NCBI GenBank assembly: GCA_963697875.1 | Contig: OY969099.1 | Span: 986,736 to 1,050,735 of the forward strand | Direction of reading: 5' to 3' | DNA from: an uncultured Actinomycetes bacterium | GTDB taxonomy: Bacteria > Actinomycetota > UBA4738 > HRBIN12 | DNA length: 64,000 bases | In this document: piece after piece, positions 5,924 through 16,886 of the stretch | Layout of the letters: every line of letters starts with the position of its first letter | How positions within the stretch are numbered: the stretch's first letter is position 1 | Notes under the pieces: model-generated | Seen by the model: the letters and a program-made list of their open reading frames with translations, nothing else | Database searches by the model: none | What the model was told of the DNA's origin: nothing | Translations under genes and position numbers: made by a program

Positions 5924-8911
5924 TCAGCCCGCGGCGTCGAGCGCGAGCGCGATCACCTCAGCCAGATGCTTCGCCTTTCGATCGGTGTTCTGCTCGATCT
6001 GGGTCCGGCACGAGAAGCCATCGGTGATCAGGAGCGTGTCGTGCGCCGCATCGCGCACGGCGGGCAGCAGCACACGTTCGCCGGCGGCGATCGAGATGTC
6101 GTACTTCTCGCCTTCCTCGAAGCCGAACGAGCCCGCCAGTCCGCAGCACCCGGAGTCGAGGATCTCGTAATCGAGACCCAGCCGCTTGAGCACCTGTTCC
6201 TCCGCGTCGAGCCCCACGATGGACTTCTGGTGACAGTGCCCGTGGTAGACGGCCTTGCGTTCGAGCCGGGGCATCTCCCAATCGTCCGCGTATTCCTGCA
6301 GGAACTCCGACAGCATGTAGCTCTTCTGCGAGAGGCGCCGAGCGTTCATGTCGTCCGGGAACAGGTTGGGAAGCTCGTCGCGGAACGCCGCCAGACACGA
6401 CGCCTCCATCCCGACCATCGGGATGCCCTGCTCGATCGGGCGCGCCAGCGTTCGGAGTGTCTGGCGGAACAGCCGCTCAGCGGTGTCGAGCATCCCGTAG
6501 TCGTACAGCGGGCGGCCGCAGCAGAGGGGGCGGGGCGGCAGCACCACGCGGAATCCCGCTGCCTCCAAGACGCGCACGTGCGCCTTGCCGATATCGGGAT
6601 GGAAGAAGTTCGTGAACGTGTCGGGCCACAGAAGCACCGGCGGACCGGTCCTCGACCGTTCGGCTCGGGACCCGAACCACTCGACGAACGTCTCGTGCGC
6701 GAACCGGGGCGCCGCCCGACGGGGATCGATCCCGCCCGCCCGCTTCGCCATCGTCGACAGGCCCGGCGCCTTCAGCACGAAGTTCGCCAACCGCGGGACC
6801 CACGACGCGATCCGCGCCCACCAGTAGATCAGGCCCATCGCGTAGGCGACGCGGGGGCGCACGCGTCCCCGGTAGTAGTGCGAGAGGAACTCGGCCTTGT
6901 AGGTCGCCATGTCGACGTTCACCGGGCAGTCGCTCTTGCATCCCTTGCACGACAAGCACAGGTCCAGGGCGTCGTGCACCTCGTCGGAGCGCCACAGATC
7001 GATATCGGGGTTGGTCCCGCGCATCATCTCGAACAGGATCCGGGCACGCCCGCGCGTGGAGTGCTCTTCCTCGTGCGTGACCATGTAGGAGGGGCACATC
7101 GTCCCTCCCGAGTCGTGGCGGCACTTCCCGACGCCGACGCACCGCAGGGCGGCGTGGGCGAAGGATCCGTGGTCCTCCGGGTACGAGAAATGGGTCCGCA
7201 CGCGAGGCGGCGCGAAGTCCGTCCCCAGGCGCAGGTTGGAGTCCAGAGGATACGGGTCGATCAGCTTGCCCGGGTTCATCTTCCAGTCGGGGTCCCAGGT
7301 CGACTTGAACTCGCGGAACGCCGCGATGATCTCCGGCCCGTACATCTTCTCCAGCAGCTCGCCTCGCGACTGTCCGTCGCCGTGCTCGCCGGAGAGCGAC
7401 CCCCCGTACTCGAGGACGAGGTCGGACGCCTCGTCGATGAAGGAACGCCATTTCTTGATGCCGGCGGCGGTGTGCGGATCCCACGGGATACGCGTGTGCA
7501 CGCACCCTTGGCCGAAGTGCCCGTACAGCGCGCAGTTCTCGTAGTCGTAGCGCTCGAACAGGTCCCGGAGGTCCTTCAGGTAGCCGGGCAGGTTCTCGGG
7601 CGGGACCGCAGAGTCCTCCCATCCCTCGTACGTGTCCCGCTGATTCGGCACGTACGCGGTGGCGCCGAGCCCGGACTCACGCACCTCCCAGATCTTCTGC
7701 TCCGCCCGCTTGTCGTCGTAGAGCTTCTCGCCCACGTAGCCATCGGCGTCTCGCAAGTGCTTGAACAACCTATTCGCCTTCTCATCGGATTCGCCCTTGT
7801 CCTCACCTCCGAACTCGGCCATGAGCCAGCCGTTCCCCTTCGGCAGGAGCTCGAGCTCGTCCTCGTGGATCTGGAGGGCCTTGTTGTCGTCGATCAGCAC
7901 GCGGTCGAAGCCCTCGAGTGCGATCGGCTCGAACTCGCGCACCGCGGGGATCTGCGCCGCGGCCTTGTAGAGATCCTCGAACCCCACGATCACGAGCGAT
8001 CGTGCCGGCGGGCTGTCGACCAGATGCAGCGTCGCTTCGAGCACGGTCACACACGTGCTCTCGCTTCCGACGAGCGCGTACGCGAGGTCGAACCCGAGGT
8101 CGGGAAGCAGACCGTCGAGGTTGTAACCGGAGACGCGACGAGGAAACGTCGGGAAGCGCTCCTGGATCTGCACCGAGTACCGATCACGGATGTCGCGCAG
8201 CCGCCGGTAGACCTCGCCCCGCCGTCCGCCACCGGCGACGATCCGCGCCAGCTCGTCGCCGGGCGTCTTCCCCACTCGCATGCGCGTCCCGTCGTAGAGC
8301 AGGATCTCCATCTCCGCGACGTTGTGCGCCATCCGGGGCCCGGCTCCGTAGAACTCGGACATGATCGAGTAGTTGCCGCAGGCGTTGTTGCCGATCATGC
8401 CCCCGATCGTGCAGTGGTCGTGGGTCGAGGGAGTGGGGCCGAACGTCACGCGTGGCTCTGCGGACTCGCCGAGGTTCCGCAACGTGTCCAGGACCAGACC
8501 CGGCTGCACCCTGGCCAGCTTCGCCTCGCGATCCAGGTCGAGGATCTCGTTCAGATACTTGGACATGTCCATGACGACGGCGGTGTTGCAGCACTGACCG
8601 GCGAGGCTGGTGCCGCCCCCCCTGGACAGGATCGGGAGCTCGTGACGGCGGGCGGCGGCCACCGTCGCGACGACGTCGTCGATGGTCTTCGGGATGATCA
8701 CGCCCACCGGCAGCTGCCGGTAGTTCGATGAGTCCGTGGAATAGATCGCGCGGTCCCCAGGGTCGAACCGGACCTCACCCTGGATCTCATCACGCAGCTC
8801 CGCGGCGAGCGCTCGGCCGCGTTCCATCTCCTCCACGGTCGGGGCCATCTTTCCCAGTGCGGGGTCGGGACGGAGCGGAATGCGGCGCGTGGCCGGCTGC
8901 GGAGTGGTCAT
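5924..8911 (-). CDS. FAD-binding (PCMH-type) oxidoreductase fused to a C-terminal Fe-S/CCG cysteine-rich domain (glycolate oxidase GlcD-GlcF-like or D-lactate dehydrogenase-like, about 995 aa)
   Basis: GGGTSLAGQ FAD-binding motif. Large C-terminal domain with CxxCxxC...CP clusters. Start set at the internal ATG 8911 (MTTPQPATRR), which has a GAAGGAG RBS. The upstream Arg/Gly-rich frame is judged spurious. Confidence 0.8.
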   Translation of the reverse strand: MTTPQPATRRIPLRPDPALGKMAPTVEEMERGRALAAELRDEIQGEVRFDPGDRAIYSTDSSNYRQLPVGVIIPKTIDDVVATVAAARRHELPILSRGGGTSLAGQCCNTAVVMDMSKYLNEILDLDREAKLARVQPGLVLDTLRNLGESAEPRVTFGPTPSTHDHCTIGGMIGNNACGNYSIMSEFYGAGPRMAHNVAEMEILLYDGTRMRVGKTPGDELARIVAGGGRRGEVYRRLRDIRDRYSVQIQERFPTFPRRVSGYNLDGLLPDLGFDLAYALVGSESTCVTVLEATLHLVDSPPARSLVIVGFEDLYKAAAQIPAVREFEPIALEGFDRVLIDDNKALQIHEDELELLPKGNGWLMAEFGGEDKGESDEKANRLFKHLRDADGYVGEKLYDDKRAEQKIWEVRESGLGATAYVPNQRDTYEGWEDSAVPPENLPGYLKDLRDLFERYDYENCALYGHFGQGCVHTRIPWDPHTAAGIKKWRSFIDEASDLVLEYGGSLSGEHGDGQSRGELLEKMYGPEIIAAFREFKSTWDPDWKMNPGKLIDPYPLDSNLRLGTDFAPPRVRTHFSYPEDHGSFAHAALRCVGVGKCRHDSGGTMCPSYMVTHEEEHSTRGRARILFEMMRGTNPDIDLWRSDEVHDALDLCLSCKGCKSDCPVNVDMATYKAEFLSHYYRGRVRPRVAYAMGLIYWWARIASWVPRLANFVLKAPGLSTMAKRAGGIDPRRAAPRFAHETFVEWFGSRAERSRTGPPVLLWPDTFTNFFHPDIGKAHVRVLEAAGFRVVLPPRPLCCGRPLYDYGMLDTAERLFRQTLRTLARPIEQGIPMVGMEASCLAAFRDELPNLFPDDMNARRLSQKSYMLSEFLQEYADDWEMPRLERKAVYHGHCHQKSIVGLDAEEQVLKRLGLDYEILDSGCCGLAGSFGFEEGEKYDISIAAGERVLLPAVRDAAHDTLLITDGFSCRTQIEQNTDRKAKHLAEVIALALDAAG

Positions 8912-10925: not shown

Positions 10926-11618
10926 TTGACCCTCCCCGGGGCGACCGGTAGCTTCGGCGAGGTCGTGACCGCCGACGTGCTCGCCCCCCCGACGTTCCTC
11001 GCGGCCGGACTCCTCGCGGTCGCCGGCGCCGCGAAGCTCGCCGACCCCGGCGCCGCCGCGCAACTGCTCGCAGACGTCGGGGTCCCCCACGGGCGTGCGG
11101 CGGCGCGACTCCTCGGGGCAGCCGAGGTCGCGGCGGCGGGCTGGGCGCTCCTCGCCCCCCGCGGCGCGTACGCCGTGGCGTGCGCCTACCTCCTGTTCTC
11201 GGCGTTCCTCGCCTACGTCCTGGTCGCGCGCCCGGACGCCGGCTCCTGCGGATGCGCCGGCTCCAAGACCGTGCCGCCCAGCGCGCTGCACCTCTCGCTC
11301 GACGTACTGGCCGGGGTCGCGGCGCTCGGTCATGCGCTCGCCGGCGGCTCCGGCGGGTGGGGTTGGATAGCGTCGCTCGGAACGGGCGCGGTGCCGGTCC
11401 TCGGCGGGCTCGTCCTCGCGGGTTGGGTCGCCACGGTCGCCGTCGCCGAGGCGCCCGGATCGTGGCGGTCCTGGAGGCCGGGCGGTCCCGAGGAGCACGA
11501 CCACCCCGCCCACGACCACCCGCGCGCCGACGAGGCGCTCGCCCTCGCCGGGATCGGACCAGGGCACCCGAGCTTGTGGCCGAGCACCGCGGGCGAGGGC
11601 GGGGACCGGACGGCATGA
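10926..11618 (+). CDS. MauE/DoxX-like redox-associated membrane protein with a His-rich C-terminal tail
   Basis: Four predicted TM helices. Conserved-looking GSCGCAGS motif after TM3, as in the MauE family. C-terminal EEHDHPAHDHP. Alternative GTG start at 10965. The stop overlaps the next start (ATGA). Confidence 0.55.
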   Translation: MTLPGATGSFGEVVTADVLAPPTFLAAGLLAVAGAAKLADPGAAAQLLADVGVPHGRAAARLLGAAEVAAAGWALLAPRGAYAVACAYLLFSAFLAYVLVARPDAGSCGCAGSKTVPPSALHLSLDVLAGVAALGHALAGGSGGWGWIASLGTGAVPVLGGLVLAGWVATVAVAEAPGSWRSWRPGGPEEHDHPAHDHPRADEALALAGIGPGHPSLWPSTAGEGGDRTA

Positions 11619-12199
11619 CCTCGGCGGTCCTCGAGCGGGCGATGCGCGTCGTCGAGCCCAGACGGTCGCGCCGTCGCCGGCTGGAGCGATTCGCGGAGGC
11701 CGCGAGCGCCCTGTCGGTCGCCCCGCTCGCGTACACGGCGCGACCGGTCACCGCGCGGTCCGTGCTTCACCGTACCTGCTCGTCCTGTCCCTCGGGATCG
11801 CGGTGCTGCGGCGGATACACAGCCTTCTGCTGCACGCTGCCGGGCGGGTCCAACTTCGGGTGCCCGCCGAACACGTTCGTCGGCGGCTGGTGGCAGTGCA
11901 ACTACGGCTCGGGCAACCTCTGCTCCACGACGAACGTGCGCTACTACCTGGACTGCTCGATGAACAGCGGGCACGCCTGCCCCGGCGGCTGCCATTGCGG
12001 GAACGACAGCTGCGCGAACTTCAAGACCTGCTGCGTCGTCTTCCGCTACGGGAACTGCAACACCGACATCCCCTACGTGACGCCGATCCTCTGCAGGCTC
12101 GTCACGTGCGTGATCCCCTGCCGGATCGATTGCCTGGACTGCAATTGCAGTGCGGCGGTCGACCAGACGACGTGCCGGCACGAGGCAGGCTGCCTGTGA
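11615..12199 (+). CDS. Hyper-cysteine-rich protein (194 aa, 25 Cys in the C-terminal about 140 aa), possibly Tat-exported
   Basis: ATG overlaps the upstream stop. The N-terminal RRSRRRRLERF + Ala-rich segment + AYTA resembles a twin-arginine signal. The domain carries CC and CxC pairs, one WW pair and no second Trp. Confidence 0.6.
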   Translation: MTSAVLERAMRVVEPRRSRRRRLERFAEAASALSVAPLAYTARPVTARSVLHRTCSSCPSGSRCCGGYTAFCCTLPGGSNFGCPPNTFVGGWWQCNYGSGNLCSTTNVRYYLDCSMNSGHACPGGCHCGNDSCANFKTCCVVFRYGNCNTDIPYVTPILCRLVTCVIPCRIDCLDCNCSAAVDQTTCRHEAGCL

Positions 12200-12834
12200 G
12201 CAACAGCGTCCTGACCTCGCTCGTCGTGGTGGAGACCATCCTGCTCGGCCTGCTCGCCGTGATCGTCGTTGCCCTGCTGCGGAGCCACGCCGAGATCCTC
12301 CGCCGGCTGCCGGCCTCCGAGGACCCCTCGGTGGTGCACGACGGCGACGAGCCGACGACGATCCCCGACTACCTGCCGCACCCGACCGGCCTGGTGAGCG
12401 TCGCGCACGACGTCAGCGGACCGACCGTGGACGGGCAGCAGGTCACGATCTCGATGACCTCGGGCACGGACACGCTCGTCACGTTCCTGTCGACCGGGTG
12501 CCTCACCTGCCGGACCTTCTGGCAGGGGCTGCGCGAGGGTGCCGCCTCGACGCTCCCGCGACGGCCGCGCGTCGTCGTCGTGGTCAAGGACCGGGCGCTC
12601 GAGAGCCCGTCCAAGCTCCTCGAGTTGGCACCCTCGGACCTTCCGGTGGTGCACTCGTCGGAGGCGTGGACGGCGTTCGGGGTCTCGATGTCGCCGTACT
12701 TCTGCTTCGTCGACGGCAGCACCGGAGAGGTCCGCTTCGAGGGCGCCGCCACCTCGTGGCCCCAGGTGGCGTCGTTGCTGCGCGATGCGCTCCTCGACGA
12801 GGAGATCGCTGCCGGCGAACGAGCGAGGGGGTGA
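12196..12834 (+). CDS. Membrane-anchored thioredoxin-fold thiol:disulfide oxidoreductase (TlpA/ResA/MauD-like), CxxC = CLTC
   Basis: GTG overlaps the upstream stop (GTGA), with GAGGCAGG 6 nt upstream. N-terminal TM helix. FLSTGCLTCRTFW motif and the later ...SPYFCFVDG... redoxin-like beta strand. Confidence 0.65.
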   Translation: MSNSVLTSLVVVETILLGLLAVIVVALLRSHAEILRRLPASEDPSVVHDGDEPTTIPDYLPHPTGLVSVAHDVSGPTVDGQQVTISMTSGTDTLVTFLSTGCLTCRTFWQGLREGAASTLPRRPRVVVVVKDRALESPSKLLELAPSDLPVVHSSEAWTAFGVSMSPYFCFVDGSTGEVRFEGAATSWPQVASLLRDALLDEEIAAGERARG

Positions 12835-12917: not shown

Positions 12918-13514
12918 ATGCTGGGAAGCATCACCCCGCTCGGCGAGCGGGGACGCGGCTCCAGGTGGTGGCTCACCGTATCGGCGTACCTCGTCGGATC
13001 GGTCGTCGGGGGGTCGTTCGCCGGCGCCCTGGTGGGGCTCGCGGGTTCGATCGTCGTCGGCAGCCTCTCGATCGCGGTGCGCCTGACGATCCTGGTGGTC
13101 GGGCTCGTCGCCGGGCTGGCGCTCGAGCTCGGCGCCTTCGGGCTCCATCTCCCGACCGCGCGGCGGCAGGTCGACGACGAGTGGCGCACGCGCTACCGGG
13201 GATGGCTGTGGGGACTCGGGTTCGGACTGCAGCTCGGGGTGGGTGTCGTGACGATCGTGACGACGTCGACCGTCTACGCCGTCTGGCTGGCGTCGGCGCT
13301 CAGTGGGGGCATCCGGGCGGGGGCCCTGATCGGGACGGTGTTCGGGCTGGCTCGTGCGCTGCCCGTCCTCACCGTCGCCGGCGTGCACCGGCCCACGCAA
13401 CTGCTCCGGGTCGATGCGACGCTCGCGCGGTTCGCGGCGCCCGCGCGCAGGATCTCGTACGCGGCCGTGGGCGGTCTGGCCGCGCTAGGGGTCGTGGGGG
13501 TGGTTCGATGGTGA
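12918..13514 (+). CDS. Polytopic integral membrane protein (4-5 TM, Cys-free), unknown function
   Basis: GAGGAG RBS 5 nt upstream of the ATG. Gly/Ala/Val-rich TM segments. The stop overlaps the next start (ATGGTGA). Confidence 0.5.
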   Translation: MLGSITPLGERGRGSRWWLTVSAYLVGSVVGGSFAGALVGLAGSIVVGSLSIAVRLTILVVGLVAGLALELGAFGLHLPTARRQVDDEWRTRYRGWLWGLGFGLQLGVGVVTIVTTSTVYAVWLASALSGGIRAGALIGTVFGLARALPVLTVAGVHRPTQLLRVDATLARFAAPARRISYAAVGGLAALGVVGVVRW

Positions 13515-13960
13515 CCGTGCAGGGTCACGGTCTCGCCGTGCAGGTGGCGAACGGATGGGAGGCGCGGATGTGGCTGCCCGGTCTGCCACCGCCGGCGATC
13601 AACCGACCTGTGATCCGTCTGGCCAACTTCGCGCTGCCGTTCTCGCGCGACACGTACGCCGACGACGTCGCCCAGGCTCTCGAGGCCGGAGCGGTGGTGG
13701 CCTCCCTCGTCGAGTTCGAGCCCGCGCTGGCGGGCCGGGGCCTGTACTCGGCGGCCGGGGTGCCGGCCTTCGGCGAGTCCGACCTCGATCCCCGTGCCGT
13801 TCAGGTCCAAGGCCACGGCCGCGCGGGGATGCAGCGGTTCTTCTCCGTCGCCGGACGTCCGTTCAGCCTGTACGTCGTGGCCCGCCGTGGCCGCGGACTC
13901 GGGCGTGCCCTCGATGAGCTCGCCGCGATGATCCGATCCCTCACCGTGGAGGCGCCGTGA
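13508..13960 (+). CDS. Hypothetical soluble protein (151 aa)
   Basis: Coupled to its neighbours by overlapping start and stop codons. No motif recognised. Confidence 0.45.
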   Translation: MVTVQGHGLAVQVANGWEARMWLPGLPPPAINRPVIRLANFALPFSRDTYADDVAQALEAGAVVASLVEFEPALAGRGLYSAAGVPAFGESDLDPRAVQVQGHGRAGMQRFFSVAGRPFSLYVVARRGRGLGRALDELAAMIRSLTVEAP

Positions 13961-14556
13961 CGCTCCTGTGGATCGCGGTGGCCGTCCTGGGGGGCCTGGG
14001 GCTCTGGCTCGGGCTGGCTCTGGCGGGCGCCGTCCGCGAGCTCGTCGTGCTCCGCGCACGCGTCGACGCGCTCGAGGCCGGGGCCGGCGCGCCGGACCAC
14101 CTCGCGTCGGGACTCCCGCCGGGCGCGCCGGCCCCGGCGTGGGAGGCGATCGACGCCGACGGGTCGCCGGTCTCCTCCAGGATCTTCACCGGCCGCCGTC
14201 ACCTGCTCTTGTTCGCCGACGCCGACTGCGCGGCGTGCGACGACATCGTTCCGTTCGTGGTGCGCGCGTCCGCGGAGGGGTCGCTTCCGCCGGCGGCGGT
14301 GATCGCGGGCGAACCATTGGACCACGCACCCGCCACGTGGCGCCCGTCGGCGGGCCGAGGCACGGTCGTGGTCGGGGCGGAGCGCGGGCGCGACGTCTCC
14401 GCGCGCTACCACGTCGACATCACCCCGACGGTCTTCGTCGTGGACGAAGGCGGGTTCGTCGCAGCTCGAGGAGCGCCGACGTCGCCGGACGAGACGCGCG
14501 ACCTGGTCGCGAGCGCGGACGGGATCCGGATCGTCGCGGGAGCAGGCGATGGCTGA
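13957..14556 (+). CDS. Second membrane-anchored thioredoxin-fold protein (TlpA-like), CxxC = CAAC
   Basis: GTG overlapping the upstream stop. N-terminal TM (LLWIAVAVLGGLGLWLGLALAG). LLLFADADCAACDD motif. The ...ARYHVDITPTVFVVDEGG... stretch is typical of the redoxin fold. Confidence 0.6.
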   Translation: MTLLWIAVAVLGGLGLWLGLALAGAVRELVVLRARVDALEAGAGAPDHLASGLPPGAPAPAWEAIDADGSPVSSRIFTGRRHLLLFADADCAACDDIVPFVVRASAEGSLPPAAVIAGEPLDHAPATWRPSAGRGTVVVGAERGRDVSARYHVDITPTVFVVDEGGFVAARGAPTSPDETRDLVASADGIRIVAGAGDG

Positions 14557-14818
14557 TCCGATCACCCGGCGCGGCTTCCTGTCCCGCACGTCGGCGGCGG
14601 CCCTCGTCGGGTTCGCGGCGGTCGCCGGCGTCGGTGGTGAGCGCCGGGCGTCCGCGCACGTCCGGCCCGCGCCGTGCCGGGTGCGCTGCGAGCCGATCAG
14701 CCGGACGGGCTGCGCGTGCGGCGGCAACCTCTATCGCTGCTCGGGATGCGGAACCAGGTTCCACGCGTGCGTGCACCGCGGCCGGTTCGGCTGGTTCTGT
14801 CTCAGGCGCTCCTGCTGA
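14549..14818 (+). CDS. Small Tat-signal cysteine-rich protein (89 aa, 10 Cys in a 59-aa mature part)
   Basis: TRRGFLSRTSAAALVGFAAVAGVGG twin-arginine signal. Mature part CRVRCEP...CACGG...CSGCGTRFHACVHRGRFGWFCLRRSC. Its ATG overlaps the upstream gene. Confidence 0.55.
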   Translation: MADPITRRGFLSRTSAAALVGFAAVAGVGGERRASAHVRPAPCRVRCEPISRTGCACGGNLYRCSGCGTRFHACVHRGRFGWFCLRRSC

Positions 14819-14819
14819 G

Positions 14820-16124
14820 TCAGACCCCGGAGCGCATCCCCACGAGGTAGGCGGAGAAGCCGATCTGGTAGCGGTCGAACGCCACGCGCCGGACCCCGCC
14901 CGAGGTGACCGCCAGCGACGGCTCGTCGTTGATCCGGTACGGCAGGTTCGACGCGTCGGTGAGCCGCTGCGGGGCGGGCCACGTCCGCCCGTCGCTCGAC
15001 TCCGCGAAGACGACGTCGACGCGGGCTCCCGCCGGTGCCGCGCAGTCGTTGCTGAGACGCGCGTTGCGCCTGCACGCGGCCACGGCGAGTAGCAGGGCGG
15101 AGTTCCCGGAAGGCAGCACGGCCGGCCCGTACCCGTCGGTGTAGATGGTCCCTCCCGCCGTGAACCCCCACGTCGCGGCGACCGTTTCGTCCCCGAGTCG
15201 CCGGGTGTCGAGCACACGCACCCCGATGCCTCCCGGCGTCGCGTAGGCGAACGCAACCCTCGGGGTCGCGGCGTCCGCGGAGCCGCCCACGGCCGGGTAC
15301 CGCAGGTCCGGATGAGGACTGGCCGGCGTGAGCTCGACCGGGGTCGACGTCGCGCCGAGGTCCGTGGCGTCGGCGTCGGAGGTGAGCGCCACCTGCCTGC
15401 CCGCCGCATCGGCGATCCAGCCGATGCCCACGAGCGCGCCACTGGCCCCCACGTCGGGAAGGCCCGCGAACCCCGTGACCGTCGCGGCGCCCATCGTGGT
15501 GGTGCCGATGCTCCGCCGCACCCAGGTACGGCCGGCGTCGGCGCTTCGAGCCAACCTGATCGCTCCCGAGTTCGCGTCGGTCCACACGGCGTACAGGTGC
15601 CGGCCGCTGGCCGCCAGGCGCGGATAGTCGACGCGCCCCTTCGGGGGGGACAGGCGGATCGGCTTGCCCCAAGTGTCACCTTCGTTCCGGGTCACACGGA
15701 CCCAGAACGCGCGCGGCGCACGGGGTCGGAAGTGCACGTATCGCGTCTGCGTGACCCACCCGACCACCACGACGTTGCCGGATGCGGCGATCGCGGCGCG
15801 TTCGGCGTGACGGCCCTTCGGGCTGATGCGCCGGGGTTTCTTCCAGGCGACCGGCGTGCCCCCCTGCCGTCCCCGCTGGACGAACACGCCCATCCACGGC
15901 CCCCTGTTCGTGGCGCACTCCTCGCTGGGCGGCGGGCAGTCGCTCGCCCACACAGAGAAGATCCGGTGGGTCGAGACCGCGAGCCCCTCGCCCGGGTTCC
16001 AGGACCATCGCGCGCCCGCACGCTGCGCCGGGCCGAACGAGACGGCCGACGCCGGCGCGGACAGCAGCGCGATCGCCCCCGCGACCACGAGCGCCGCCGC
16101 GATGCGCGCCTGCCGACGCCTCAA
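14820..16124 (-). CDS. Secreted BNR/Asp-box repeat (sialidase-like beta-propeller) protein
   Basis: N-terminal signal peptide (AAALVVAGAIALLSAPASA). Multiple S-x-D-x-G-x-T-W Asp-boxes (NEGDTWGKP, SADAGRTW, SSDGRTWPAP). Confidence 0.65.
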   Translation of the reverse strand: MRRRQARIAAALVVAGAIALLSAPASAVSFGPAQRAGARWSWNPGEGLAVSTHRIFSVWASDCPPPSEECATNRGPWMGVFVQRGRQGGTPVAWKKPRRISPKGRHAERAAIAASGNVVVVGWVTQTRYVHFRPRAPRAFWVRVTRNEGDTWGKPIRLSPPKGRVDYPRLAASGRHLYAVWTDANSGAIRLARSADAGRTWVRRSIGTTTMGAATVTGFAGLPDVGASGALVGIGWIADAAGRQVALTSDADATDLGATSTPVELTPASPHPDLRYPAVGGSADAATPRVAFAYATPGGIGVRVLDTRRLGDETVAATWGFTAGGTIYTDGYGPAVLPSGNSALLLAVAACRRNARLSNDCAAPAGARVDVVFAESSDGRTWPAPQRLTDASNLPYRINDEPSLAVTSGGVRRVAFDRYQIGFSAYLVGMRSGV

Positions 16125-16681
16125 CGCATCGTCCAGGTGGGCTGCTTGTTCGGGTCGAGGAACTGCACGAAGGGCGACCCGTCGTTCGCCAGGCCGACGA
16201 CCACCCGCAGCTCGCCACTCGGATCGAGCAGGCGCAGCACGGGCGACCCGGCGGCCGCCAGACCGAGCCGCACGCGGACCTTCCCGGCGTCGTCGTAGAG
16301 CCCCAGCGTCGGGGAGCCTTGCTCGGCGAGCTTGTAGCGGTGGTGGAGCTCGCCGTCCTCGACCTCGATGCCCATCGTCGGCGACGCGTCGGAGCCCAGT
16401 CCGAACTTCGCGCGGATCCGCCCGTTCTTGTCGCCGAACGCGAGCGAGGCAGATCCGTCCGAGGAGAGCCCCAGCGTGGCCCGCACCTTCCCGTTGTCGT
16501 CGGCGATCGCGAGCCCGGCGGCTCCGTCGGACTGCACGCCGAACCTGGCTCGCACCGAACCGTCGTCGTCGAGCATGGAGAAGAAGGGCAGATCGTCGTG
16601 CGACAGACCGATCCGCAGCCGGACACGGCCCTGCTCGTCGACGACCTCGAACTCCTCGGCTCGGACGACGCGCTTCTTCAT
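16121..16681 (-). CDS. Repeat protein with six about 23-aa D-x-x-G-x-(V/I)R-x-x-(L/F)G(L/V)-x-x-DG-S repeats
   Basis: The internal periodic repeat is obvious in translation. The stop overlaps the BNR gene start. The start is uncertain: alternative in-frame ATGs at 16759 and 16849. Confidence 0.45.
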   Translation of the reverse strand: MKKRVVRAEEFEVVDEQGRVRLRIGLSHDDLPFFSMLDDDGSVRARFGVQSDGAAGLAIADDNGKVRATLGLSSDGSASLAFGDKNGRIRAKFGLGSDASPTMGIEVEDGELHHRYKLAEQGSPTLGLYDDAGKVRVRLGLAAAGSPVLRLLDPSGELRVVVGLANDGSPFVQFLDPNKQPTWTMR

Positions 16682-16886
16682 CGGGGACGGATGCGCTGCG
16701 CAGAAGGACTCCGCACCGCGCACGTCATCGTCCCGCACGCGCGGCGCCCGCTCAAGCATGGAGGGCGCACAAAGTGAGAAGTCGCCGGAACCCGAGGGCC
16801 CCAGCGACTTCTCGCCACGATTTCTACCCCGGCCGGCCGAAACGGTCAACCTGGGGACCGGATTTTGTCACTCTTTTCCCCCGGGA

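Follow-up and report, generated by a model that had tools for sequence, protein, structure and literature searches.

A probable mauE/D/F-type maturation cassette for an unnamed cysteine-rich protein family in uncultured Actinomycetota

The small subunits of the known tryptophan tryptophylquinone (TTQ) and cysteine tryptophylquinone (CTQ) enzymes sit on propeller subunits, as seen in the structures of methylamine dehydrogenase (MADH) and quinohemoprotein amine dehydrogenase (QHNDH). QhpC, the CTQ-type gamma subunit of QHNDH, is a small, cross-linked, Cys/Trp-dependent subunit with Cys-Asp/Glu thioethers that has dedicated maturation partners and is seated on a beta-propeller. MauA is the TTQ light chain of MADH, and the canonical Methylobacterium cluster, mauFBEDACJGLMN, was used here for comparison. 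The MADH small subunit has been reported to require both MauE and MauD (van der Palen 1997, as cited in PMC7794033). MauE, only lately recognised as a third major enzyme by which bacteria form disulfides, can stand in for DsbB in E. coli, depends on the cysteines of its CXC motif and is often fused to thioredoxin-fold partners, and it is widespread without MauA, the latter being found in only 10% of MauE-bearing species (bioRxiv 10.64898/2026.03.05.709764). Here we describe a locus in a stretch of 64,000 nucleotides (positions 986,736 to 1,050,735 of contig OY969099.1, assembly GCA_963697875.1, from an uncultured Actinomycetes bacterium), referred to below as the window, in which a gene for a protein with 25 cysteines lies among homologs of mauE, mauD and mauF. 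What is new in this locus is a mauE/D/F-type maturation cassette that probably serves an unnamed, structurally unmatched Cys-rich family in uncultured Actinomycetota. We favour, as reasonably probable on the sequence evidence, the reading that a MauE/D/F module is devoted to the oxidative folding of this protein, its exported cargo, and that the protein is most likely a distant and enlarged relative of MauA. The gene and its predicted parts are as follows.

11615-12199, + strand: gene of the Cys-rich precursor, translated into 194 aa with 25 Cys
11615..11755, + strand: predicted leader of the precursor, residues 1-47: helical n-region, twin-arginine motif in decayed form (SRRRRLER), weakly hydrophobic h-region (AASALSVAPLAY) and conserved RPVTA
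11756..12199, + strand: predicted mature Cys-rich domain, residues 48-194, with 16 core and 9 clade-specific Cys and a sheet in the AlphaFold2 (AF2) model

The reading frame at 11615-12199 is a real, conserved gene. A preliminary description of the window, made from the sequence alone, had reported a 194-aa protein with 25 Cys, a WW pair and CC, CxC and CxxxC motifs, and the translation matches it exactly: all 25 Cys fall within residues 53-194 (25/142, or 17.6%), the three Cys motifs are present, and the sole Trp residues are the adjacent W92-W93 (nt 11888-11893). G+C contents of 0.53, 0.61 and 0.92 at the first, second and third codon positions, in surroundings of 69% G+C, the use of TGC for 24 of the 25 Cys codons and a dN/dS of 0.28-0.57 against six homologs argue against a spurious frame, as do the overlap of its ATG with the stop codon of the upstream MauE gene (ATGA), the overlap of its own stop with the GTG start of the next gene (GTGA), the clusters of homologs and the near-invariance of many of its Cys. 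A word-indexed search with the 194-aa protein returned 58 homolog clusters at 41-91% identity, an exhaustive profile search returned 454 representatives at 50% identity, and at least 773 family clusters (90% identity) were found by profile search in a set of 5.8 billion proteins. The earlier worry that the frame might lack homologs and hence be spurious is thus dispelled by the 58 close clusters and the larger number found by profile, and conservation, third-position G+C and dN/dS together rule out a spurious frame. Promoter and terminator scans gave nothing informative.

The Cys-rich protein founds an unnamed family. Its members, all of which come from metagenome-assembled genomes, belong mostly to uncultured Actinomycetota, Acidimicrobiia, Gaiellaceae and Solirubrobacteraceae, and are called in databases 'hypothetical protein', 'twin-arginine translocation signal domain-containing protein', or by the label of a fused module; no description of the family was found in literature searches. 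Among about 160 members scanned (the window protein, 66 diverse and 92 long relatives), none has the domain matched by a Pfam or NCBIfam model, and the same scan gave no match to granulin, knottin or any other curated Cys-rich family, so that the granulin or Cys-knot membership raised as a check in the preliminary description finds no support. Lacking a Pfam family and any detectable structural relative, the domain merits a family definition of its own.

Conservation was counted over 185 full-coverage family sequences. Sixteen Cys are invariant or near-invariant (58, 64, 72, 73, 83, 103, 114, 126, 128, 133, 140, 148, 160, 165, 176 and 193), and the smallest family members have exactly 16. Among the other residues, N80, P84, G91, W92 (96%), W93 (100%), R109, D113, F143, Y145, G146, R161, P168, T186 and H189 are invariant or nearly so. 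The clade of the window protein adds nine Cys to this core, and 45 of the 46 sequences bearing all nine have a total of exactly 25. Within the added set, C95 covaries with C187 (r = 0.99), while C55, C169, C173 and C178 form a group in which 169 and 178 covary with r 0.97; C65, C122 and C139 remain after this pairing, and one unpaired Cys is therefore expected. Judged from these counts, 8 disulfides most likely hold the domain together in every family member, with about 12 and one spare Cys in the window clade. The nine invariant residues other than Cys, Gly and Pro (N80, W92, W93, R109, D113, Y145, R161, T186 and H189) suggest that the domain has a specific ligand or active-site pocket and is more than a scaffold.

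An AF2 model of the mature domain, built on the 66-sequence alignment (a run on 38 close homologs only gave a pLDDT of 46 and was discarded), has a pLDDT of 85-94 across residues 80-190. Its predicted core is a three-stranded sheet of residues 87-96, bearing the WW pair, 108-116, bearing RYYLDC, and 157-164. A fold search with the predicted domain gave no significant match, and an hmmsearch of the family profile against all Protein Data Bank (PDB) chains, 2BBK and 2AGL included, returned nothing at E<=10. The long relatives bear on where the domain resides. Among these 92 proteins, 30 end in LGFP repeats, 8 in CWB2 and 4 in SLH, and DUF4214, FG-GAP, Ricin and B_lectin occur as further C-terminal modules; no catalytic Pfam domain was found fused to the Cys-rich domain among the relatives scanned. 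Because of these fusions, the domain is best described as an extracellular, usually wall-tethered 'head'. Fusions with PF07291, the MauE family, occur in 3 of the 92 long representatives and in about 10 additional clusters. These MauE-cargo fusions (P0062, P0064, P0065 and P0389-P0409) are metagenome proteins of 342-393 aa with a complete MauE domain followed by the leader and the Cys-rich domain, and are named in their source merely 'MauE/DoxX family redox-associated membrane protein'. In such fusions the 'leader' would act as an additional membrane pass.

Loci L001-L061, from 59 genomes and with flanks of up to 10 kb, were searched by tblastn with the window proteins. A five-gene core of MauE, the Cys-rich protein, a thioredoxin-like protein, a multi-pass (MauF-like) membrane protein and a protein of about 150 aa, here called X, recurs in the 59-genome loci and persists down to 34-45% identity of the Cys-rich protein. 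In L063, an Acidimicrobiia-type contig, the core has the order MauE, thioredoxin-like protein, membrane protein, X and Cys-rich domain fused to LGFP. The window clade adds three genes to this core, for a second MauD-like protein, an 89-aa protein with 9 Cys and a signal for twin-arginine translocation (Tat), and a 434-aa BNR-like protein. Across these loci the module has no conserved gene for immunity, transport or proteolysis. The genes surrounding the Cys-rich gene in the window are listed below.

10926..11618, + strand: MauE homolog, a predicted DsbB-like membrane disulfide generator (PF07291, E 6.8e-13; start codon uncertain)
12196..12834, + strand: MauD-like, thioredoxin-like protein, predicted to be membrane-anchored, with CLTC at 102-105 (phmmer against Methylobacterium MauD, E 2.8e-5)
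12918..13514, + strand: MauF homolog, a five-segment membrane protein with no Cys (phmmer against MauF, E 1.2e-13 over 167 residues)
13511..13960, + strand: protein X, 149 aa, no signal peptide, no Cys, the fifth gene of the core module
13957..14556, + strand: second MauD-like thioredoxin/redoxin, predicted to be membrane-anchored, with CAAC at 91-94 (phmmer against MauD, E 1.3e-8, nearly end to end)
14549-14818, + strand: small 89-aa protein with a canonical Tat signal (TRRGFLSR...ASA, followed by HV), a basic mature part of about 52 aa and 9 Cys (reading frame and 32 homologs)
14820-16124, - strand: predicted secreted 434-aa protein with three Asp-box motifs (BNR, sialidase-like propeller; BNR_2 E 6e-4, below cutoff)
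16121-16849, - strand: 242-aa reading frame with tandem repeats of about 20 aa (DDxGxVRxxLGLxxDGSP), no significant family match

The MauE homolog scores 49.5 bits against PF07291 (cutoff 27), has four hydrophobic segments with CGC at residues 108-110, past the third of them, and adjoins the Cys-rich gene directly upstream in nearly all of the 59 loci. Its CXC motif is followed by A-G, versus the usual F-G. The thioredoxin-like product of 12196..12834 has one N-terminal hydrophobic segment and matches the MauD model TIGR02661 with an E of 0.0016, under the cutoff, and its gene keeps its place next to that of the Cys-rich protein in loci where identity falls to 34%. The product of 13957..14556, a gene restricted to the window clade, matches TIGR02661 at E 1.2e-6 and Redoxin at E 7.9e-6. 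The MauE and thioredoxin-like neighbours named in the preliminary description are thus confirmed, the former by a PF07291 match above cutoff and the latter by similarity to MauD, and the partnership it proposed between them and the Cys-rich protein is borne out by synteny in the 59-genome loci; the MauF homolog, also present, had gone unseen. For this homolog, hhalign of a 15-sequence alignment against MauF gave a probability of 96.6% (E 5e-10, 143 columns), compared with 0.2% for a control against MauE, and single-sequence tblastn with MauF found matches in 38 loci. A sub-threshold Pfam match of 12918..13514 to DsbD_2 (E 6.5e-4) was re-read as MauF-like in the light of the phmmer and hhalign results, and a CcdA/DsbD-type electron conduit is unlikely for this product because it has no cysteines. 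The window MauF homolog is without the first roughly 90 residues of MauF, including the SPCGYSSLC stretch; if the function of MauF involves the Cys of that stretch, the Cys-free window version must work otherwise.

The window MauE carries a His-rich C-terminal tail ending in AGIGPGHPSLWP. The tail, at 11490-11618 of the window, contains HDHPAHDHP, with HHHHDEH or HEGHEHE elsewhere, and then a strictly conserved (D/E)xxLxxAGIGPGHPSLWPG. This tail motif, seen also in L063 near 8601, L053 near 12603 and L048 near 3533, ends MauE in the window clade (24 loci) and the MauD-like protein in distant clades, and as a mobile tail it possibly has a role in docking or metal binding. Protein X was found in loci down to 26-34% identity and is a core member in all clades; it displays the motif (F/Y)xLPxxRGD(F/Y)G and an invariant GxQxF...R...LY, and Pfam and PDB profile searches gave no match for it. 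A ResB-like/CcsA (Cytochrom_C_asm) pair for cytochrome c biogenesis lies divergently upstream of MauE in L063 (4261-7193, - strand), which may be a coincidence or a link to membrane thiol-redox handling. In L043, a cupredoxin-like reading frame at 7255-7587 (- strand) matches amicyanin (MauC) with E 8e-9 about 2.5 kb upstream of the module; it is probably coincidental because it occurs in only 2 loci. The repeat-containing frame at 16121-16849 is not conserved beside the module in other genomes.

Both the wall-anchor fusions and the Tat motifs of the family indicate that the Cys-rich protein is exported, by a route that is less plain. Signal-peptidase cleavage would fall after A47, where VTA precedes R48, in keeping with the conservation of P44 and A47; A32, P37, P44 and A47 are each at least 92% conserved among the 185 sequences. 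The twin-arginine leader proposed in the preliminary description holds only in part for the window protein itself, whose S18-R-R-R-R-L-E-R departs from the family consensus S-R-R-G-F-L-x-R and whose h-region is weakly hydrophobic (Kyte-Doolittle mean <1.5 in every 19-aa window); distant members have a textbook Tat signal (TSRRGFLxR...AVAPxxYxxRPGTAYA followed by AVC, with an [ST]RRxFL motif). PF10518 matches 8 of the 66 family members, weakly. Since many members of the window clade are without any RR, the export route is uncertain.

The small Tat protein bears on this question. Its homologs have exactly 9 Cys in 29 of 32 cases, and it matches no Pfam or NCBIfam family and nothing in the PDB. 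The Tat consensus of the Cys-rich protein is absent in 32 of the 33 loci that have the small Tat protein, several of them having no RR at all, and is present in all 10 loci that do not have it; in the intermediate loci L043 and L046 both Tat signals are present. This complementarity of signals suggests a partner or hitch-hiker relation between the two proteins, and we might speculate that the odd Cys counts (25 and 9), taken with it, fit a disulfide-linked, co-exported pair. The BNR-like gene is a further companion. It always adjoins the operon in the window clade (about 35 loci), either downstream and convergent or upstream and divergent, and is absent from distant clades; its product is 51% identical to the L002 counterpart and has no PDB sequence match.

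The local resemblance to the MADH light chain that had been noticed, with a MauA sequence that proved exact, was examined by profile comparison. Full-length hhalign of the Cys-rich family against 31 true MauA precursors gave a probability of 96.7% (E 3.7e-10, 118 columns). Because the leader carries most of this score (leader alone against the MauA leader: probability 96.2%, E 2.3e-9, score 42.9), the full-length value was not taken at face value and controls with shuffled columns and with a generic Tat leader were added. The generic leader, that of the small Tat protein family, scored 22 against either leader, and the n-region ahead of the RR motif, compared alone between the family and MauA, gave an E of 4.6e-5. 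With the leader kept and the mature MauA columns shuffled, the score was 60.4 +/- 1.4 versus 70.2 for the real alignment, which 0 of 120 shuffles reached. For the mature part, shuffled MauA columns gave a local score of 13.2 +/- 2.6, and 1 of 150 shuffles reached the real 22-23. The stretch so aligned in the family and in MauA, C..DG..C.C.GG...CPPGT...W...C....Y..DC....C.C, is the one that the preliminary description had pointed to; the membership in PF02975 that might have gone with it does not follow, as described below. In the full-length alignment, invariant W93 falls on the quinone-bearing Trp57 of MauA, and D113-C114 on Asp76-Cys77. The second TTQ Trp (Trp108) has no counterpart, as had been noticed before: W92 and W93 are the only Trp in the window protein, and position 169, which is W in 97 and C in 55 of the 185 sequences and varied in the rest, is Cys in the window protein. 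Taken together, the leader, the N-terminal half and the three shared helper genes make a remote common ancestry with MauA-type precursors likely.

Several observations weigh against this ancestry and against the cargo reading. PF02975 failed to match the window protein at E<=1 or any of the 66 diverse members at E<=10, and, as with the PDB search above, the family profile finds no light-chain structure; the protein is not a member of PF02975. Mature-only hhalign against MauA is weak when taken alone (probability 2%, or 8% with larger alignments; E 0.004-0.02 over 22-56 columns), the mature similarity rests largely on one motif, DG..C.C.GG...CPPGT, and the placement of D113 differs by three residues between two hhalign runs. 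The generic Tat leader control is one family only, and the many window-clade members without an RR pair leave the export route in doubt. Finally, adjacency to MauE proves little by itself because MauE is now regarded as a generalist oxidase. The Cys-rich protein has neither the C-terminal half nor the Cys count of MauA, and no second Trp, heavy chain or MauG goes with it; on the sequence evidence it therefore falls outside the light-chain family as defined. A tblastn search with Methylobacterium MauB (the heavy chain, PF06433), the di-haem MauG, MauJ, MauL, MauM and MauN gave no match at E<=1e-3, either in the 64-kb window or in L001-L061 and L063, where it covered 10 kb around the gene. Apart from MauF, MauD and the cupredoxin, no Methylobacterium mau gene matched in the flanks, which were not otherwise annotated or searched for qhp genes.

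In the cargo reading, the precursor would be targeted by a MauA-type leader (a long helical n-region, then the twin-arginine motif, the h-region and an RPxxA cleavage site), which most of the family has in canonical form and the window clade in a decayed one, and would be exported and then folded oxidatively at the outer face of the membrane. The disulfides would be made by MauE, whose CGC is taken to be quinone-linked and DsbB-like, and the MauD-like proteins (CLTC and CAAC) would hand on or shuffle them to the cargo, with help from the MauF-like protein and X. The folded domain would stay at the envelope, tethered by LGFP, CWB2 or SLH in relatives, while the window cargo is free-standing and probably pairs with the 9-Cys Tat peptide, the BNR propeller, or both. 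In the course of evolution the lineage would have retained the leader and, of the fold, the N-terminal half, along with helpers E, D and F, and would have lost, or never possessed, the heavy chain and MauG. This account of disulfide transfer leans on the MauE preprint and on the MauE/MauD genetics of the MADH small subunit; the direction of thiol oxidation, the partner proteins of the cargo and the homology to MauA are what we infer. It coincides with the alternative put forward in the preliminary description, a disulfide-knotted secreted substrate of the neighbouring Trx/MauE proteins, which is now the best-supported reading.

The same disulfide-knotted, secreted protein could be unrelated to MauA, with a leader likeness generic to long Tat leaders, a convergent CPPGT, and MauE/D/F serving as the folding machinery of the lineage beside a demanding substrate. 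The mature-only hhalign probability of 2-8%, the one shuffle in 150 that beats the real score, the generalist character of MauE with MauA in only 10% of its host species, and the Streptomyces mauE/mauD genes that adjoin unrelated precursors with at least 8 Cys (PMC7794033) are all consistent with such a protein. We nevertheless consider it unlikely, given a collinear full-length score that lies about 7 sd above the shuffle mean (0/120), an n-region likeness outside the RR motif, and three mau helper homologs, MauF included, beside a protein whose best and sole profile hit is MauA. The Tat-type leader of the family, the loss of the canonical RR motif in 32 of 33 loci with the small Tat protein against its presence in 10 of 10 without, the odd Cys counts of 25 and 9, and an earlier proposal of MauE as a reductase (as cited in bioRxiv 10.64898/2026.03.05.709764) would suit a metal or Fe-S protein that folds in the cytoplasm around its cofactor, leaves through Tat already folded and in the window clade hitch-hikes on the small Tat protein, while the thioredoxin-like proteins keep its Cys reduced. 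We regard this as very improbable: no ferredoxin-like or other metal-cluster motif or family was hit (Pfam and NCBIfam, window protein and 66 members), minimal members have exactly 16 Cys and the clade-specific Cys covary in pairs (95-187, 169-178), as disulfides would, MauE complements a dsbB deletion as an oxidase (bioRxiv 10.64898/2026.03.05.709764), and the internal leader of the MauE-cargo fusions cannot serve as an N-terminal Tat signal. Least credible, and to our minds barely so, is a secreted toxin, bacteriocin or large product resembling a ribosomally synthesised and post-translationally modified peptide (RiPP), acting in antagonism only and tailored by MauE and MauD. The decRiPPter analysis did single out, as candidate RiPP classes, clusters in which mauE/mauD accompany Cys-rich precursors (PMC7794033), and the small basic 9-Cys peptide is defensin-like in composition; however, a 145-aa domain with synteny strongly conserved across whole classes and under purifying selection, often tethered to the producer's own wall (LGFP, CWB2, SLH) and with no immunity, transporter or protease gene conserved in its module, is hard to reconcile with such a role.

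A cofactor-bearing quinoprotein was considered as well, in which W93, cross-linked to a Cys in a CTQ-like manner or to W92, becomes a tryptophylquinone, and the protein is the catalytic light chain of an oxidoreductase, acting on amines or otherwise, at the cell wall, with the BNR propeller as heavy chain and the 9-Cys protein as electron acceptor. Such an enzyme would explain the conservation of W93 (100%) and W92 (96%), the placement of W93 on Trp57 and of D113-C114 on the catalytic Asp76-Cys77 in the full-length hhalign, the MauA-like leader with its MauE, MauD and MauF helpers, the secreted propeller gene that is always adjacent in the window clade, the odd and conserved count of 25 Cys there, and perhaps the His-rich tail on MauE. 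It is nonetheless improbable. MauG, MauB and MauJ are absent from the 64-kb window and from within 10 kb in the 59 genomes, and no flavoprotein or radical-SAM cofactor enzyme was seen there either, in flanks not otherwise annotated and without a search for qhp genes. No second Trp is conserved, distant clades that retain W93 and D113 have neither the propeller nor the small Tat protein, the fusions to MauE and to wall anchors suit a stand-alone head better than a subunit of a soluble heterotetramer, and the alignment register near D113 is unstable. The quinone cofactor as such, derived from Trp and backed by the alignment alone, is neither supported nor excluded by the sequences. A bolder form of the idea, for which we see a slim chance, would make the protein a MauA descendant and the founder of a new class of actinobacterial cell-wall enzymes with a protein-derived cofactor, in which W93 (with W92, D113, Y145 and a nearby Cys) gives a Trp-derived quinone or another cross-link without MauG. 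In the window clade one intermolecular disulfide (25 + 9 Cys) would join the cargo to the small Tat partner, which would also carry it across the membrane, and the cargo would dock on the BNR propeller as a substitute for the heavy chain. That the Cys-rich family is a new class of cofactor-bearing quinoproteins is to be thought similarly doubtful; were the invariant Trp pocket indeed to carry a cofactor, a new quinoprotein class would be the consequence.

Returning to the cargo reading, the locus supplies a defined natural substrate family for MauE, with at least 770 clusters, 8-12 disulfides predicted per 145 residues and occasional fusion to MauE itself, in the company of MauD- and MauF-like proteins, the functions of which are obscure even for the classical mau system. 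A cassette of mauE/D/F genes and a MauA-type leader without heavy chain or MauG, in uncultured soil Actinomycetota, also bears on the origins of TTQ enzymes.

Among described systems, the MauA/TTQ light chain (PF02975; 2BBK L and 2AGL D) is like the Cys-rich protein in being small, exported and extremely disulfide-dense, in having a long leader with an n-region helix before (S/T)RRxF/L, and in being encoded alongside mauE, mauD and mauF, homologs of which accompany the Cys-rich gene; the predicted hairpin of the Cys-rich domain likewise bears an invariant Trp and Asp. The two differ in Cys content, 16-25 in the Cys-rich family versus 12 in MauA (six disulfides in a mature chain of about 125 aa), in the C-terminal half of the domain, which is unrelated and has no second conserved Trp, in the fusion of many Cys-rich family members to wall anchors or to MauE, and in their hosts, Actinomycetota as opposed to the Proteobacteria that harbour MauA. 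The QHNDH gamma subunit stands further off: it has 4 Cys and no disulfides, and no Pfam hit, that to QH-AmDH gamma included, was obtained at E<=10 among the 66 members, which answers in the negative the suggestion that the protein might belong there. The decRiPPter clusters of Streptomyces (PMC7794033) are comparable in that mauE/mauD occur outside the methylamine pathway beside the gene for a Cys-rich product (at least 8 Cys); of the proteins here, the small Tat protein with 9 Cys (14549-14818) comes closest to such a product. They are unlike the present locus, from which they are set apart by description only, in that a folded domain of 145 aa, made with a Tat-type leader, is here the main product, and that a MauF homolog and X accompany it. 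The MauE oxidative folding pathway (bioRxiv 10.64898/2026.03.05.709764) shares with the window module the CXC motif, a conserved Lys in the first helix, a Glu in the second and adjacent thioredoxin-fold partners. By contrast with the thioredoxin fusions reported in that preprint, the window-type MauE shares a fixed operon with a single substrate family, to whose members it is in some cases fused.

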